A DNA stretch of 64,000 nt, taken from positions 250,318-314,317 of the forward strand of contig CAYUYE010000002.1 of assembly GCA_964449255.1 (NCBI GenBank). The letters run 5' to 3'. The position numbers and the translations under genes are program-made. Source of the DNA: an uncultured Nitrospira sp. Lineage in GTDB: Bacteria > Nitrospirota > Nitrospiria > Nitrospirales > Nitrospiraceae. Shown one piece after another: positions 56,468 through 62,592 of this stretch. The notes under the pieces were generated by a model. It was not told where the DNA came from and did no database searches. It saw only the letters and a program-made list of their open reading frames with translations. Within the stretch, counting starts at the first letter, position 1; every line of letters begins with the position of its first letter.

Positions 56468-57364
56468 TTAGGCGTTCACCGGCTCGATGAATCTGTTGAT
56501 GACCCAGCCTTCCAGGTCGGTCTCGTCGCTGACGTCGACTTTGGTCCAGCGCGCGCCTTTTTCCAGCACAAATACTTCGGCGCGCTTGGGCAGCGGATCC
56601 CCTGCGAGGGGAAACTCGGTCCCCGGTCCCGTGCGGATGTTCAGGGCCTCCGCCACAACCCGGACGCGTTCCCGTTCGTCCGCTCGCCGCCCCAGCACTC
56701 GTGAACGGATATGTTCCAGTGGAAAGGCCGGCCCGGGGTCACGCTTGCGGTCTGGGGCCACATCTTCGTGGCCGATGACGTCGCGGAGGTCGTAGGTGTG
56801 GACGAGCAGGAGAGCCAGCTCGAGGGCACGTTGAATTTGAATCTCCGTGTAGGCGTGCCACCACTTAGGGGTCTGATCCAATCGGTGCTTGGCATGGAGT
56901 GCCTGATCGCGCGGATATTCAGCCCCGAACCAGGCTTTCAGAGTGTCGCCCTGTGCCGTGAGCGGACCCGCATTGTCCATCTCAATCCCAATCGCATGGC
57001 CGTTGAGGCCGCTCAGGCCCTCCCACTGACTCACGCCGGCGTGCCAGGTCTTGACGTTAAAGGGGGCGAGCTGGGTGATGCGACCGTCGCGGGCGATCAC
57101 GAGATGGGCGGAGGCCTGGGAAAGGGGGTTGCACAGCCAGTCGCAGGACGCCTGGGCGTTTCGCCCAGCCGTGTAGTGAAAGATCAAATAAGCGGGTGTG
57201 ATGGGCTCACCGCGGTTGGGCGTGTCGCGAAAGGTCACCCCCGGCCCCTTCAGACGATGCCGTTCAACGATATAGGGCTGGACGGATTTCAGCATCGTTC
57301 TGGAGGCCGGCCCTCCTCTCGATCTCTGTTTGGGACGTTGGCGCTTGCGGGTTGATCGGCGCAT
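56468..57364 (-). CDS. N-acetylmuramoyl-L-alanine amidase (Amidase_2/AmpD-type) with C-terminal SH3b-like domain
   Basis: It has IFHYTAG, HLVIARDG and GHEDVAPDRKRDPGPAF motifs and a C-terminal LNIRTGPGTEF...WTKV SH3b pattern. There is no signal peptide. The start is uncertain (57364 or 57295). Confidence 0.75.
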   Translation of the reverse strand: MRRSTRKRQRPKQRSRGGPASRTMLKSVQPYIVERHRLKGPGVTFRDTPNRGEPITPAYLIFHYTAGRNAQASCDWLCNPLSQASAHLVIARDGRITQLAPFNVKTWHAGVSQWEGLSGLNGHAIGIEMDNAGPLTAQGDTLKAWFGAEYPRDQALHAKHRLDQTPKWWHAYTEIQIQRALELALLLVHTYDLRDVIGHEDVAPDRKRDPGPAFPLEHIRSRVLGRRADERERVRVVAEALNIRTGPGTEFPLAGDPLPKRAEVFVLEKGARWTKVDVSDETDLEGWVINRFIEPVNA

Positions 57365-57563
57365 GGGTCAGTCCGCCTTCTTGTGTGAGATGCGATGGTG
57401 GTCGGTAATCTACTGGAGCAGTCGCAAAGCCTGTACCACCGGATTCGGCTGTCCTGGGCGGCCCAGTCGAGGAGGAAACAGCCCGATGTCATTGAAATCG
57501 CAATGGCTTGTCGGTGCTAGGACAGGGCGAACTCTTCGAAATGTATCTAATTTTTCGGCCGGC

Positions 57564-57579
57564 GTATCCAATCAGATAC
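57564..57579. promoter_or_regulatory. GTATC-N6-GATAC palindrome (operator-like), copy C
   Basis: cGTATCcaatcaGATACg lies 33 nt downstream of the transporter stop and about 185 nt upstream of the amidase start. An extra GTATC half-site sits exactly 21 nt away (57543-57547). Confidence 0.45.
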
Positions 57580-57611
57580 GAGCGCTTGGGGGCGGACAGC
57601 TGCGATGACGG

Positions 57612-58934
57612 TTAGACTTTCGGGGGCTCGTCAACGCTCCGACGGAGCGCTTCATGGTGGCGGCCGAGATACAGGCCGTTCACAAGCCAGAGTCCTGCGA
57701 TGGGAACCGCGGCCAAGGCGGATTCGCCGATCGTGAGACCGGCCGATTGCAGCGCGTTGGATATCCAGCTGCTGGCCATGTCACCGCCCCGGTGCACGAC
57801 GGTATCGATCACGTTCTTGGCTTGATACTTCTCCTCTTTCGATACGACGGTGAAGAGGGTTTCCCGAGTCGGTTTGGCGATGGCAAACTCCCCGGCGCGT
57901 CTCAGGATGCCGAAGACCACCAGCACGGCCAAGATCGGCACCACACTGAAGACCGTAAACCCGAACACGTTGAACGCGGGCACGGCGGCAAGCAGCGTGG
58001 TGACGCCGAGGCCCGAGAGCAATCGCCCGGTGAGGAGCAGTTGGGTGAGCACCGTCACGCCGTTCACGGCGAAATCCACCCAGGCGAACAGTTGAGTCCG
58101 TTCTTCCGGGCTGCCCACGACTTGCGGCACCAACACCATCTGCTGGCTATACAGCATCGTCGACAGCACCGAGTAGCAGCCAAGATACAGGCAGATCCCC
58201 AACAGATAGCGCGATTGAAGGATGCGCCTGATGCCCACCCAGAGACTGGGTGGCTCACCAGCCTGCTCCTTGGTGGCGAGGGTATGGCCCCCCGCTCGTC
58301 TCTCGTGATGCGTGGCATGCGTCTTCAATACGGCAAAGAAACACGTCATCGCGGTCAGCAACAAGCCAATCGAGACCAGGAGCAACGGGGCCACACCGAG
58401 GGAGGGTACCATCAAGGCCGTGAACAACGGCCCCGCGACGGCGCCCAGACTTCCGCCCGCCGCGATGAACCCAAACAGCCGTCTTGCGGAGTCCGTGGAA
58501 TACAAGTCCGCCATCACGCTCCAGAACACCGAGACCACGAAGAGATTAAAGACGCTGACCCAGACAAAGAAGATGGGCGCTACGGTCGCGAGTGGTACGT
58601 CGGTGCTCAAGGCGAGGAAAAACAGGAACAGGTTGCTCGCGAAAAACAGATAGACCGTCGGGATGAGTTTTCGCACCGACAGCCGACCTGCGATCCAGCC
58701 GAATACCGGGACCAGGATCAGCATCGACACAAACACGGCCGAGAAGAGCCAGGGCAATTTGGCCGCGCCGGTCTGCACCCCCATTTCATCCCGCACCGGA
58801 CGCAAGACGTAATAGGACGCCAGTAGGGTGAAGAAATAGAGGAACGAAAACACCAGCGCGCGGATTTCCTCGCGCCTGACGGCGATGATGCGGCTCAACA
58901 GATAGTGGAGGGTGATGGGATCGGCCGTTGTCAT
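57612..58934 (-). CDS. TLC/NTT-like (ATP:ADP antiporter family-related) MFS-type transporter
   Basis: It has about 12 TM segments and the N-terminal pattern REEIRALVFSFLYFFTLLASYYVLRPVRDEMG, typical of Npt1/Npt2-like transporters as I recall. The start was moved to ATG 58934. Confidence 0.5.
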   Translation of the reverse strand: MTTADPITLHYLLSRIIAVRREEIRALVFSFLYFFTLLASYYVLRPVRDEMGVQTGAAKLPWLFSAVFVSMLILVPVFGWIAGRLSVRKLIPTVYLFFASNLFLFFLALSTDVPLATVAPIFFVWVSVFNLFVVSVFWSVMADLYSTDSARRLFGFIAAGGSLGAVAGPLFTALMVPSLGVAPLLLVSIGLLLTAMTCFFAVLKTHATHHERRAGGHTLATKEQAGEPPSLWVGIRRILQSRYLLGICLYLGCYSVLSTMLYSQQMVLVPQVVGSPEERTQLFAWVDFAVNGVTVLTQLLLTGRLLSGLGVTTLLAAVPAFNVFGFTVFSVVPILAVLVVFGILRRAGEFAIAKPTRETLFTVVSKEEKYQAKNVIDTVVHRGGDMASSWISNALQSAGLTIGESALAAVPIAGLWLVNGLYLGRHHEALRRSVDEPPKV

Positions 58935-59213
58935 GCTGGGGAATGCGGCCTGGACTATACCCGATGCGGCGGGGGGATACCACCACCACCCGCGATGGCG
59001 CTGATTGTCCGACTCCCGTTCCGGGGGCAAGTTTTTGCGAGGGGTGGGACACGCGCGTGGCGCCTCGAATGTTCCTCCTTCGTGGAAGCGGACAACTGTG
59101 GTTCGCTGCCTCACTCGTGTCTCGGAGGACTGTTGAGCGAGCGTAGCGCGGCAGGGAGCAGGGCCTGATGGATCTATGCCGAGGGTAGCCGAACGTGGGA
59201 ATCGCCTGAAGTT

Positions 59214-59250
59214 GTATCAAGCCGGATACGGAGGGTATCGGAAGGGATAC
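59214..59250. promoter_or_regulatory. two tandem GTATC-N6-GATAC palindromes, centres 21 nt apart (operator-like), copies A and B
   Basis: tGTATCaagccgGATACggaggGTATCggaaggGATACg lies in the 527-nt divergent intergenic region between the transporter gene and the nuclease gene. Confidence 0.5.
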
Positions 59251-59460
59251 GTCGAAGAAAATAGGACAGTTTCCATTTCCGCAGGATTCTGTGGAGTTTT
59301 CACTCCCCCGGCGCTGGCGGGGTCTTTGCACGTTCCCCTCTGAGTGGGTGTTGCCTCCGCGGCGGTGGGGTTCTCCAGGACGGCGACCCTTCAGGGAACG
59401 CCCCGCCATGCTCCTCAAAACTTGCACTTCCCGTCACAGGAGCCGACAGTGGAGACGGTC

Positions 59461-60399
59461 ATGCCGGTTGAACTGAGTCACATGAAAACCCTGGCTGAAT
59501 TGGCCGGGGAAGCGCAAGGGATTCTCCGAGACATGGGGCGCCTTGCGCGCGTGCCCCTCAGCAAAAAACCCCAAGATTACAGCCGGCGCAAAGGATACGC
59601 CCCGGCGTTCTTGCAACGGTTCCCCGTCCCCCGCCCGATACTGACGTGCGCCAACCGGGACGACGAAGTGCCGCTGCTCGACGGCTCGGGGACGGAACTG
59701 AAGTACGAGCATTTTTCCATAGCCATGTCCAAATCGAGGCGGCTGGCGCGGTACGTGGCCTGCAACATCGACGGCTCGCGCAGCGTGAGGATTCGTCGCG
59801 GCAAAGATACGTGGAGTCTCGATCCGCGGATCGACACACAGTATCAGTGCGGCGAAGAACTCTACGCGGACAATGAGCTGGATCGCGGTCATCTCGTCCG
59901 ACGCGAAGATGCGGTGTGGGGCGAGAAGAAAGTGGCGGCCGTGGCCAACGAAGATACGTTCCATTTTACCAATTGCGCGCCGCAACATGCGCAGTTCAAC
60001 CGAAAGATCTGGCTGGGGCTCGAGGGCTACATCCTAAAGAATTCCCGAGCGCATCAGCTCCGCGTCAATGTGTTGACGGGGCCGGTCTTTCGAGAGGATG
60101 ATCCGACCTATCGCGAGGTCCAACTGCCCCGTGAATATTGGAAGGTGGTCACGGTGGTCACGGATGGGCGCAATTCCGCCACCGCCTATATGATCAGCCA
60201 ATCCGAGCTGCTTGAGCGTCTCCGCGCGTTCGGGTTTGGCACGTACAAGACCTATCAAGTCAGCATTGCCCACGTCGAATCCCTCACCGGCCTCGATTTT
60301 GGAACCTTACGAAACTACGATGGCTTCTCAACCCAAGAACGCCGAGTTGCGGGCCCGATGCGAACGGAGATCCGATCTTGGCGCGACATTCGGATCTGA
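59461..60399 (+). CDS. DNA/RNA non-specific endonuclease (beta-beta-alpha-Me, Endonuclease_NS family), no signal peptide
   Basis: It has the LDRGHLVRRED (DRGH) motif and downstream TNCAPQHAQFN Asn. A GTGGAG RBS-like element precedes ATG 59461, and the N-terminus is hydrophilic. Confidence 0.8.
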   Translation: MPVELSHMKTLAELAGEAQGILRDMGRLARVPLSKKPQDYSRRKGYAPAFLQRFPVPRPILTCANRDDEVPLLDGSGTELKYEHFSIAMSKSRRLARYVACNIDGSRSVRIRRGKDTWSLDPRIDTQYQCGEELYADNELDRGHLVRREDAVWGEKKVAAVANEDTFHFTNCAPQHAQFNRKIWLGLEGYILKNSRAHQLRVNVLTGPVFREDDPTYREVQLPREYWKVVTVVTDGRNSATAYMISQSELLERLRAFGFGTYKTYQVSIAHVESLTGLDFGTLRNYDGFSTQERRVAGPMRTEIRSWRDIRI

Positions 60400-60468: not shown

Positions 60469-62592
60469 ATGCCTGAAACAACTCAGGTCCGCCTTGGCAA
60501 GAAGAGTGAACCAGGGATCACGCTCCGCAAGAGTGACGACTTGATTGCGGTGCGTACCCGTTCCACACGATCGATCAGGACAGGGGCGGTGCGTACGCCC
60601 GAGTCCGGGGAGGTAGCGGATGGGTTTCTCGTGTTCGCCATCCCGGATGCCGGGGTCGAGGTGTATCGCGTGCCGCCCGGAGCGGGTCGGCGGTCGCTGG
60701 AGGGGCGTAAATCGGCGCTTCGTGCGGCCCCGGACGTCCGTTTTGCCGGCGGTGTCATGGTCGATGACAAGTCCGGCGAACCGGTGCTTTACACCGAGAA
60801 TCTATTCATCAAGTTCGTCGATGACGCCGATCCGGAAGACTGCCGCGCCGTCATTCGAGACGCCGGCCTCACGATCAAGAAGGAGCTGACGTACGCGACG
60901 AATTCGTTTTTCGTCGGGGCGCCTGAGGGGACGGGCACGAGAGTGTTCGAGATGGCCGCCTCGCTCTTGAATCGAAAGGACGTCGAGTATTGCCATCCGG
61001 AACTCGTCCGTCCGAAAGCGCGTCGTCAGATCGCAGCGGAGCAATGGCACTTGAAAACGACAACGATCAACGGCACGCCTGTCGCCGCGAGCGCGAACGT
61101 CGAGGCGGCGCATCAAATAACGATGGGAGAGGGGGCCACGATCGCCGTCATCGATGACGGGGTGGACGTCGATCATCCGGAGTTTGCCGGGGCGGGCAAG
61201 ATTGTGGCGCCGCGGGACGCCACGCTTGGCACTGGCGATCCACGTCCGAAGGATGCGGGTTTCGAGGAAAATCACGGCACCGCCTGTGCGGGGGTGGCCT
61301 GTGCCGCGGGGACCGAAAAGGCATCGGGCGTCGCGCCCAAGGCCAAGCTGATCCCCATTCGACTCAACTCGGCGCTCGGCTCCCAGCAGGAGGCGGAGGC
61401 GTTCGAGTGGGCGGCCAACCACGGCGCCGACGTGATTTCGTGCAGCTGGGGCCCGCAAGACGGGGCGTGGTTTAACCTCAACGATCCGGCGCACAACCAA
61501 AAGGTGCCGATCCCGGCCAGCACTCGTTTGGCGATCGACTATGCGACGACCAAGGGTCGCAACGGCAAGGGATGCATCGTGCTGTTTGCCGCCGGGAACG
61601 GCAACGAAAGCGTCGACAACGACGGCTATGCCAGTTACGAGCGGGTCATCGCCGTGGCCGCCTGTAACGATCGGAGCAAGCGCAGCGTCTATAGCGACTT
61701 CGGCAAGGCCATCTGGTGCGCCTTCCCGAGCAGCGACATGGGGCACTCGCCGTTTCAGCATCCGGCGCCCCTGACAGCGGGGATTTGGACGACCGACCGC
61801 ACCGGCTCCCCCGGCTATAACTCCGGCAAGTCTTCTGAGGGCGACACCCGCGGCAACTACACGAATAGTTTCGGCGGCACCTCCAGCGCCTGCCCTGGTG
61901 CGGCAGGGGTGGCGGCGTTGGTCCTGTCGGTGAATCCCACGCTCAAATGGCAGGAGGTGCGGGACATTCTCAAGCAGTCCTGCGACAAGATCGATCCACA
62001 GGGCGGCAACTACACGGCCGAGGGCTGGAGTCGGTTCTACGGCTACGGGCGGTTGAACGCCGAGACGGCGGTGAAACTCGCGAAGCCGTCGACCAACAAC
62101 CGTGTCTTGATCAGCCGCACATTCAACGAACCGGTTCCGGACCTCCAGACCGTCACGGTATCGCTCGACGTCAACGATGCGACCGTGGTGGAGAATCTGA
62201 TCGTGCATTTGGATCTGGAGCACACCTACATTGGTGATCTGATCGTGACACTCATGCCGCCGTCCGGGTTGGCGCCGGCGAAAGTCACGTTGCACAATCG
62301 CGCGGGCGGCGCCGCGCAGAACATCAAACGGTCCTATGACATGCTGGATACGACCGCGCTCGCTGCCTTCAAGGGCAAAAACCTCAAGGGGACTTGGACC
62401 CTCAAGATCCAAGATGCGGAGGCACGGGACGAAGGCACGCTGAAGCAATTTGGGCTCGAATTGGTGTTCGGATCGGGCGGGATGCGTATGGAGGGTGCGC
62501 CAGGCAATGGGACCGGCGCGCGGACCAGACGCGTGGCCGGAGGCCGTGCAAGAACGACTGCGGGGCGGCGTCGGACGGCCCGTCAGAGCTAA
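60469..62592 (+). CDS. S8-family subtilisin/kexin-like serine protease with proprotein-convertase P-domain, no signal peptide
   Basis: The catalytic motifs are AVIDDGVD (Asp), HGTACAG (His) and GGTSSACPGAAG (Ser). The P-domain pattern is HTYIGDLIVTLMPPSG ... LKGTWTLKIQD. It also has a ~190-aa N-terminal pro-like region and an Arg-rich C-terminal tail. Confidence 0.85.
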   Translation: MPETTQVRLGKKSEPGITLRKSDDLIAVRTRSTRSIRTGAVRTPESGEVADGFLVFAIPDAGVEVYRVPPGAGRRSLEGRKSALRAAPDVRFAGGVMVDDKSGEPVLYTENLFIKFVDDADPEDCRAVIRDAGLTIKKELTYATNSFFVGAPEGTGTRVFEMAASLLNRKDVEYCHPELVRPKARRQIAAEQWHLKTTTINGTPVAASANVEAAHQITMGEGATIAVIDDGVDVDHPEFAGAGKIVAPRDATLGTGDPRPKDAGFEENHGTACAGVACAAGTEKASGVAPKAKLIPIRLNSALGSQQEAEAFEWAANHGADVISCSWGPQDGAWFNLNDPAHNQKVPIPASTRLAIDYATTKGRNGKGCIVLFAAGNGNESVDNDGYASYERVIAVAACNDRSKRSVYSDFGKAIWCAFPSSDMGHSPFQHPAPLTAGIWTTDRTGSPGYNSGKSSEGDTRGNYTNSFGGTSSACPGAAGVAALVLSVNPTLKWQEVRDILKQSCDKIDPQGGNYTAEGWSRFYGYGRLNAETAVKLAKPSTNNRVLISRTFNEPVPDLQTVTVSLDVNDATVVENLIVHLDLEHTYIGDLIVTLMPPSGLAPAKVTLHNRAGGAAQNIKRSYDMLDTTALAAFKGKNLKGTWTLKIQDAEARDEGTLKQFGLELVFGSGGMRMEGAPGNGTGARTRRVAGGRARTTAGRRRTARQS

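Follow-up and report, generated by a model that had tools for sequence, protein, structure and literature searches.

Tandem GTATC-N6-GATAC palindromes beside a nuclease–protease operon of an uncultured Nitrospira sp. as likely enhancer sites of a new sigma-54 regulon

In a contig of an uncultured Nitrospira sp., three copies of the palindrome GTATC-N6-GATAC lie on either side of a transporter gene and face a nuclease–protease cassette, which raises the question of what kind of regulator uses these sites and on which genes it acts. The stretch of DNA analyzed here (64,000 nucleotides, hereafter the window) corresponds to C2:250318-314317 of a 3.49-Mb assembly with 61% GC and 68 contigs. An earlier, sequence-only reading of the window had interpreted the palindromes as operators of a dimeric transcription factor co-regulating an amidase, the transporter and the nuclease–protease genes, and thus as a local feature of the cassette.

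Our computational analysis points elsewhere. The palindromes are probably upstream activator sites (UAS), i.e., enhancers, of a bacterial enhancer-binding protein (bEBP) that works with sigma-54, placed on the nuclease–protease and amidase genes and belonging to a regulon of about 24 promoters.

The palindrome and its association with sigma-54 promoters

A pattern scan of the window found exactly three copies of GTATC-N6-GATAC and a lone GTATC half-site, with the following positions and neighboring genes:

56468–57364, minus strand: N-acetylmuramoyl-L-alanine amidase (Amidase_2) with a C-terminal SH3 domain (Pfam)
57543–57547, strand not applicable: promoter-proximal half-site at a distance of 21 nt from the 57564 palindrome; on the amidase strand it reads GATAC
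57564–57579, strand not applicable: putative UAS palindrome GTATCCAATCAGATAC upstream of the amidase; exact match, centered at about -160 from the predicted amidase start site
57612–58935, minus strand: MFS/TLC-like transporter (Pfam), with sites on both flanks
59214–59229, strand not applicable: putative distal UAS palindrome GTATCAAGCCGGATAC; exact match, centered at about -119 from the predicted nuclease start site
59235–59250, strand not applicable: putative proximal UAS palindrome GTATCGGAAGGGATAC; exact match, centered at about -98, with a center-to-center distance of 21 nt from the distal site
59461–60399, plus strand: NucA-type non-specific DNA/RNA endonuclease (Pfam Endonuclease_NS, E = 5e-52)
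60469–62592, plus strand: subtilase S8 with a P-domain (Pfam Peptidase_S8 2e-47, P_proprotein 8e-16)

The scan reproduced every coordinate of the sequence-only reading, including the 21-nt phasing and the half-site, and the Pfam calls agreed with its layout of two minus-strand genes (amidase, transporter) and two plus-strand genes (nuclease, protease). Its view that three copies were unlikely to arise by chance was borne out by dinucleotide shuffles of the window, which yielded 0.00 matches. We also judged it right in assigning the palindromes to a dimeric transcription factor and in stating that no regulator gene adjoins them.

When the scan was extended to the whole genome, as that reading had proposed, 21 exact copies were found at the N6 spacing, compared with 0–4 at each other spacing between 0 and 14. 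Moreover, 19 of the 21 were located outside the coding mask, which leaves approximately 24% of the genome as non-coding. These counts mark a genuine motif, tied to its spacing and intergenic in location. Half-sites in the same register clustered at ±20 to 23 nt from the 21 exact sites, with 18 counts vs. 0.013 expected per offset and type, so that the occurrence of a second full or half site 21–23 nt away is a genome-wide rule and not a local oddity. Most promoters of the regulon combine a strong palindrome with a weaker partner retaining one half-site, and the 57543 half-site is the weak partner of the 57564 palindrome in such a tandem. Full tandem pairs, 21–23 nt apart, were observed in the window, on contigs C6, C7, C18 and C23 (twice) and in the relatives G004, G038, G041, G055 and L047. 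The symmetrised consensus was cGTATCCRATYGGATACg, to which GTATCCAATCAGATAC is close; its center prefers A/T, and information was present at positions not used for site selection (C6, A8, T9, G11 and the flanking C/G).

The association of these sites with -24/-12 promoters was analyzed with a simple scan of our own, in which a promoter was counted when it scored at least 6, lay within 300 bp and pointed away from the site. Such a promoter accompanied 15 of the 21 exact sites, at a separation of 70–210 bp, and 13 of 65 one-mismatch sites, as compared with 4.0% of random positions (binomial p ~5e-17 for the exact sites, by our own arithmetic) and 1 of 41 sites over 12 control palindromes. The distance from the UAS center to the -12 element ranged from 82 to 224 nt, with a median of 132. 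A congeneric species (G004) showed the association at 13 of its 21 exact sites, which are independent of those analyzed here, and four of the promoters reached a consensus-grade score of 8.0. Altogether, about 24 promoters in the genome are preceded by the combined UAS and -24/-12 signature. The genome encodes rpoN (C15:38568-39050) and 20 bEBPs (Sigma54_activat proteins).

One of the control palindromes, TGATC-N6-GATCA, was itself present in 16 copies, compared with 0–7 for each of the other 11 controls, and none of the 16 was near a sigma-54 promoter. This excess may reflect the motif of another regulator or a GATC-core effect.

Since the sites sit approximately 100–160 bp upstream of -24/-12 promoters, they are better described as enhancers than as operators, and the predicted mode of action is activation from a distance. 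A classical repressor operator should overlap or abut the core promoter or the start site, and here 70–210 bp separate the sites from the nearest promoter element; further, no sigma-70-like promoter was predicted around the sites in the region scanned (57300–59500). The operator interpretation was thus abandoned, as was the notion of a local feature, given that the motif spans about 24 promoters and is found family-wide and in two of three sister families.

In the mechanism that we propose, a dimer of the C-terminal Fis-type helix-turn-helix (HTH) of the activator would occupy each GTATC-N6-GATAC. Two sites, or a full and a half site, 21–23 nt apart would be separated by two helical turns, present the same DNA face and nucleate the AAA+ oligomer; a DNA loop would then bring the activator to the promoter some 100–160 bp downstream, where its ATPase would remodel the sigma-54 RNA polymerase held closed at -24/-12. 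Activator binding, activation and the inducing signal are the parts of this model that we infer.

Target genes at the locus

Three further features of the window bear on the identity of the targets:

59315–59330, plus strand: predicted sigma-54 promoter TGGCGGGGTCTTTGCA (TGGCGG-N5-TTGCA, GG-N10-GC), score 6.5, predicted start site near 59341
57423–57438, minus strand: sigma-54-like promoter TGGTACAGGCTTTGCG (TGGTAC-N5-TTGCG), score 5.5, predicted start site near 57412
59277–59305, plus strand: conserved block (TTCTGTGGAGTTTTCA and neighbors) with an imperfect hairpin in it, located past the UAS and ahead of the -24 element; the intergenic alignment of the window and locus L047 contains three conserved islands, of which this is one

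The TGGCGGGGTCTTTGCA promoter is located approximately 70–95 bp downstream of the tandem pair and reads into the nuclease gene, and the 59214/59235 pair would drive from it an operon of nuclease and S8 protease, the latter being the second gene. Translation of the nuclease probably begins at the ATG at 59461, because the predicted start site at about 59341 makes the GTG at 59344 implausible; this ATG aligns with that of L047, where the gene order is the same.

Footprinting of orthologous intergenic regions, also proposed in the sequence-only reading, gave a divided outcome: the nuclease pair and promoter were kept in L047, and the amidase site was absent at the orthologues. Among the 80 nuclease loci fetched, L047 was the sole one from Nitrospiraceae (68% identity in the nuclease). 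It retains a tandem pair, GTATCGAGATGGATAC and GTATCGGAAGAGATAC, 23 nt apart, together with a promoter, TGGCGGGCAGTTTGCA. The first is the counterpart of the distal site, with the half-sites retained and the spacer altered, and the second that of the proximal site; overall, half-sites were conserved between L047 and the window, and spacers and most of the intergenic region had diverged. The tandem pair was found at none of the 79 nuclease loci of other phyla. Relatives of the NucA-type nuclease (45–57% identity) are scattered over Bacillota, Chloroflexota, Pseudomonadota, Acidobacteriota, Fusobacterium and the archaea Nitrososphaeraceae and Methanolinea, a patchy distribution that points to wide horizontal spread. 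Among the loci compared, the nuclease–protease cassette appears to be wired to the enhancer only in Nitrospiraceae.

The hairpin within the block at 59277–59305 was detected by a terminator-like scan, and the block is shared with L047 as TTCTG.GGAGTTTTCA. A terminator would be implausible in that position; the block could be a site for a bending protein, and no IHF consensus was seen in it by eye. As regards the hexamer GATACG, which the sequence-only reading had noted at 59594, 59806, 59953 and 60463, the four occurrences were confirmed (0.24 expected on that strand) and were not conserved in L047. At two of these positions the hexamer encodes Asp-Thr, using GAT, the rarer codon. In view of their differing codon contexts and this lack of conservation, they were discarded as extra half-sites and treated as chance or codon-driven.

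On the opposite side of the transporter, the minus-strand promoter TGGTACAGGCTTTGCG lies about 130 bp from the 57564 site and reads into the amidase, the first open reading frame downstream of it. The 57564 site and its half-site would drive the amidase gene from this weaker promoter (57438–57423), which makes the amidase a predicted member of the regulon, held with lower confidence than the nuclease operon. Orthologues of the amidase in G004, G028, G013 and L047 are found in other contexts, with upstream regions that could not be aligned with the window, and the one in G004 is preceded by a similar element, TGGTAC-N5-TTGCC. Because these loci do not have the site, it is considered lineage-specific. 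Upstream of the amidase orthologues, L047 and G028 share another conserved stretch, GTATCCTTGCTTCTC...CGATAAGGAGCG (L047 2190-2290), which is not an N6 palindrome. About 150 bp separate the amidase of L047 from the transporter preceding it, and the two genes may share a transcript.

With regard to the transporter, no -24/-12 element facing it was found within 300 bp of the tandem pair, even at a threshold of 4.0, and the 57564 site is located beyond the transporter stop codon, on the 3' side. For these two reasons its co-regulation is not supported, and it is probably a bystander instead of a target. Hence, of the co-regulation originally claimed, the link between amidase and nuclease–protease genes stood and that to the transporter did not.

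Several observations weigh against the enhancer interpretation. The -24/-12 score is an ad hoc one, with a background measured by the same score; no promoter scoring 6 or more was detected at 6 of the 21 exact sites in this genome and at 8 of 21 in G004; the amidase promoter (5.5) is weaker than most promoters of the regulon, and its UAS was absent at all four orthologous loci examined (G004, G028, G013 and L047). In addition, the identical sequence is a proven site of an unrelated, OmpR-like regulator, RhpR (PMC4191427).

The last point, together with the third of sites that have no strong -24/-12 element, would suit a model in which a conventional dimeric regulator, OmpR-family regulators of the RhpR type included, uses the palindromes as classical operators or activator sites at sigma-70 promoters. 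RhpR of Pseudomonas syringae is a response regulator that, phosphorylated, controls a large regulon and binds GTATC-N6-GATAC, an inverted repeat defined by footprinting and chromatin immunoprecipitation sequencing (PMC4191427). It is OmpR-like, without an AAA+ domain (PMC2222644), and autoregulated from a site in its own promoter. As an unrelated protein binds the identical motif, the sequence alone does not name the binder. The genome studied here encodes four OmpR-type regulators (Trans_reg_C), and none of the four has a site upstream: at the nearest (C18), ispH lies between the gene and the site, which serves a divergent sigma-54 promoter. Moreover, a conventional regulator fails to explain the excess of sites 80–220 bp from -24/-12 elements and finds no predicted sigma-70-like promoter around the sites. 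We therefore rejected the four candidates, as the sites track sigma-54 promoters, and consider this class of explanation very improbable; we interpret the identity with the RhpR motif as convergence on a common half-site, not homology.

Candidate regulator and distribution in relatives

The motif was also scanned in 60 relatives, with the reversed motif as a control. In the family (36 genomes), approximately 259 copies were counted vs. 29 of the control. The motif was enriched in two of the three sister families of the order, for instance in family f4, with 19 sites vs. 3 control matches; the third, represented by a genus of small complete genomes, showed no enrichment (18 vs. 19). Genome G058 had 7 sites vs. 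0. These counts suggest that the motif is conserved across the order, with turnover of individual sites.

This conservation, the intergenic location of 19 of the 21 sites, their fixed position relative to sigma-54 promoters, the phased half-sites and the A/T preference of the spacer are all difficult to accommodate if the palindrome were a non-transcriptional feature, such as a bipartite restriction-modification or methylation target or a dispersed repeat. The 5-N6-5 form does resemble that of Type I targets, and the spacers vary freely. Nevertheless, the sequences flanking the exact sites showed no repetition among copies, and we regard an origin of this kind as extremely improbable.

As for the protein that binds the proposed enhancers, comparative inference designates as the probable binder a bEBP subfamily whose recognition helix is LQRTYLARLI(K/R)Q. 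Two members are encoded in this genome: an orphan response regulator with REC-AAA+-HTH architecture (C17:2908-4343, hereafter C17) and a GAF-AAA+-HTH paralogue (C23:9970-11691, hereafter C23) with helix LQPSYLSRLCRQ and an HTH_8 domain. The helix is present in the REC type throughout the order, and G058 carries its canonical form.

The most direct connection comes from sister family f3, in which REC-AAA+-HTH genes (~450 aa) lie directly behind one or more palindromes and a sigma-54 promoter in four cases (L039, L040, L041 and L141), an arrangement that indicates autoregulation. The nearest homologues of these bEBPs in the present genome are C17, at 52–54% over the full length, and C23, at 55–56% over the AAA+-HTH portion. 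Their DNA-binding domains match only C17 and C23 (E = 1e-15 vs. at least 1e-5 for the other 18 bEBPs). C23 is the sole bEBP within 3 kb of sites in this genome and has two flanking tandem-UAS promoters, and in an f4 genome (G039) a site with a promoter was located 100 bp past the subfamily gene. In the two genomes with no sites, the best match had a different helix, and the helix of the sister genus without enrichment had diverged (LQRSYLARVLKQ).

Two observations count against this assignment. C17 has neither an adjacent kinase nor a site, even with up to 2 mismatches, within 9 kb, on which grounds its autoregulation was rejected. Orthologues of C23, for their part, are absent from G002-G004, G011 and G028, which hold 7–25 sites; C23 as the sole regulator, suggested by its proximity to sites, was likewise dismissed, since several genomes rich in the motif have no orthologue, and genomes poor in it do.

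The same facts are what one of the other 18 bEBPs would explain if it bound the enhancers in place of the C17/C23 subfamily: no autoregulation of C17 in this family, no covariation of C23 orthologues with motif counts and, additionally, only weaker homologues in f4, despite its 19 sites vs. 3. Against this stand the palindromes co-localized with or autoregulating the subfamily in f3, f4, G017 and G058, the similarity of the DNA-binding domains, confined to C17 and C23, and the helix missing from the best matches of the zero-site genomes. On balance, a binder from outside the subfamily seems unlikely.

None of C17, C23 and the f3 protein reached the curated NCBIfam equivalog cut-offs (NtrC, AtoC, ZraR, NifA, NorR and PrsR), the best matches being AtoC, PrsR and NtrC. 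A search for solved structures of a closely similar DNA-binding domain whose site is known returned only weak matches, to ZraR and FleQ.

C23 lies in a signaling island (C23:7000-22000, L024) that encodes a cyclase and FHA protein, the GAF-type bEBP and an FHA and SLT transglycosylase protein. One tandem UAS of the island precedes a gene for a CsgG-like pore, and a divergent tandem UAS precedes an operon whose products are a lipoprotein, a DUF4384/FlgT_N protein and a Ser/Thr kinase of 748 aa. An outer-base variant (TTATC, CTATC or GATAA) is present in each of the four sites of the island and also in the sites beside GAF-type orthologues in L028 and L032; a possible reason is that the GAF paralogue differs slightly in its specificity.

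Regulon content and comparison with known systems

The first genes behind the combined signatures in this genome encode the following products:

Tle1-like phospholipase; patatin-like protein with a membrane domain
papain-like protease fused to an alpha/beta hydrolase; HExxH protein
metallopeptidase with ricin-lectin domains; animal-type haem peroxidase
1956-aa multicopper-oxidase-like protein; cadherin-like and lactonase-propeller lipoproteins
CsgG-like pore; operon of a lipoprotein, a DUF4384 protein and a Ser/Thr kinase

The 1956-aa protein, encoded from C4:154022 onward, is secreted and has a weak multicopper-oxidase match as its only assignment. A lipoprotein gene was a target both in this genome (G000) and, orthologously, in G004, whose targets include a ShlB-type TpsB; this lipoprotein, TpsB and the haem peroxidase are the present candidates for a core of the regulon shared among genomes. 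In a sister family, the signature preceded genes for a TpsB with a haem peroxidase, a two-partner secretion (TPS) exoprotein with CHAT and DUF928 proteins, kinases and a TonB receptor. One sister-family island (L039/L040 on G055:C18 and L041 on G038:C8) holds at least 7 UAS/sigma-54 promoters; its genes encode two paralogous autoregulated bEBPs, the TpsB and haem peroxidase, the TPS exoprotein with CHAT/DUF928 proteins, two histidine kinases and the TonB receptor.

Judging from these predicted products, the theme of the regulon would be degradative or conflict enzymes together with envelope and secreted proteins, many of which look accessory. A bolder and rather doubtful idea is that a phosphorelay-controlled sigma-54 activator serves as the master switch of a 'conflict and exterior' arsenal in Nitrospirales. 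If so, candidate components would be the NucA-S8 cassette (intracellular), the Tle1-like and patatin lipases, the papain-like protease, the leaderless amidase, the haem peroxidase, two-partner secretion and the CsgG-type pores. Horizontally gained effector cassettes, such as the nuclease operon, would have been domesticated by acquiring the enhancer, and modules potentially harmful to the cell itself would be gated transcriptionally by a signal such as envelope damage, attack by phages or predators, or biofilm state. The GAF paralogue, beside the cyclase, FHA proteins and Ser/Thr kinase, would then supply these sites with an additional input.

Among nitrifiers, the nitrite oxidisers of the Nitrospira type have a key place, and to our knowledge almost none of their regulons has been defined experimentally; our literature search found no paper in which this regulon is described for Nitrospira. 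What is new is the sigma-54 regulon, the enhancer-site architecture itself being already known. The analysis provides a concrete cis-element, predicts about 24 promoters as its targets and proposes two proteins as candidate regulators; it also offers the case of a horizontally mobile nuclease–protease 'conflict' cassette that appears to be plugged into a host-specific enhancer network.

The general architecture is that of NtrC-type activators, which act through enhancers at sigma-54 promoters, for example at glnAp2 with its tandem sites for NtrC dimers. As in that system, tandem palindromic dimer sites on one helix face lie approximately 100–150 bp upstream of a GG-N10-GC element, the candidate activator has REC, AAA+ and Fis-type HTH domains, and rpoN is present. 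In contrast, the site is GTATC-N6-GATAC and not the TGCACC-N5-GGTGCA of NtrC, the candidate regulator falls below the NtrC, AtoC and ZraR cut-offs, and the predicted regulon comprises hydrolases and envelope or secreted proteins instead of nitrogen assimilation.

The nearest conceptual precedent, by analogy, is the PrsR/PrsK signature of the PEP-CTERM regulon, in which an activator motif and a -24/-12 motif about 60 nt apart stand before numerous single-gene operons whose products are exported (Haft et al. 2006, PMC1569441). In both cases one bEBP-type regulator was deduced from a two-part signature, and PrsR is the second-best full-length NCBIfam match of C17. Motif and protein family differ: motif 1 of PrsR is a 17-mer ending in TTTACA (PMC1569441), and C17 scores 412.3 against the PrsR model (TIGR02915), whose cut-off is 502.6. 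Further, no kinase or TPR gene of the PrsK/PrsT type adjoins C17, a statement that covers its neighborhood, as the rest of the genome was not searched for PrsK, PrsT or PEP-CTERM proteins.

Finally, the comparison with RhpR carries a caution for regulon annotation. A motif look-up by itself would misassign the Nitrospira sites to the RhpR class, as the identical motif belongs there to an unrelated class of regulator.

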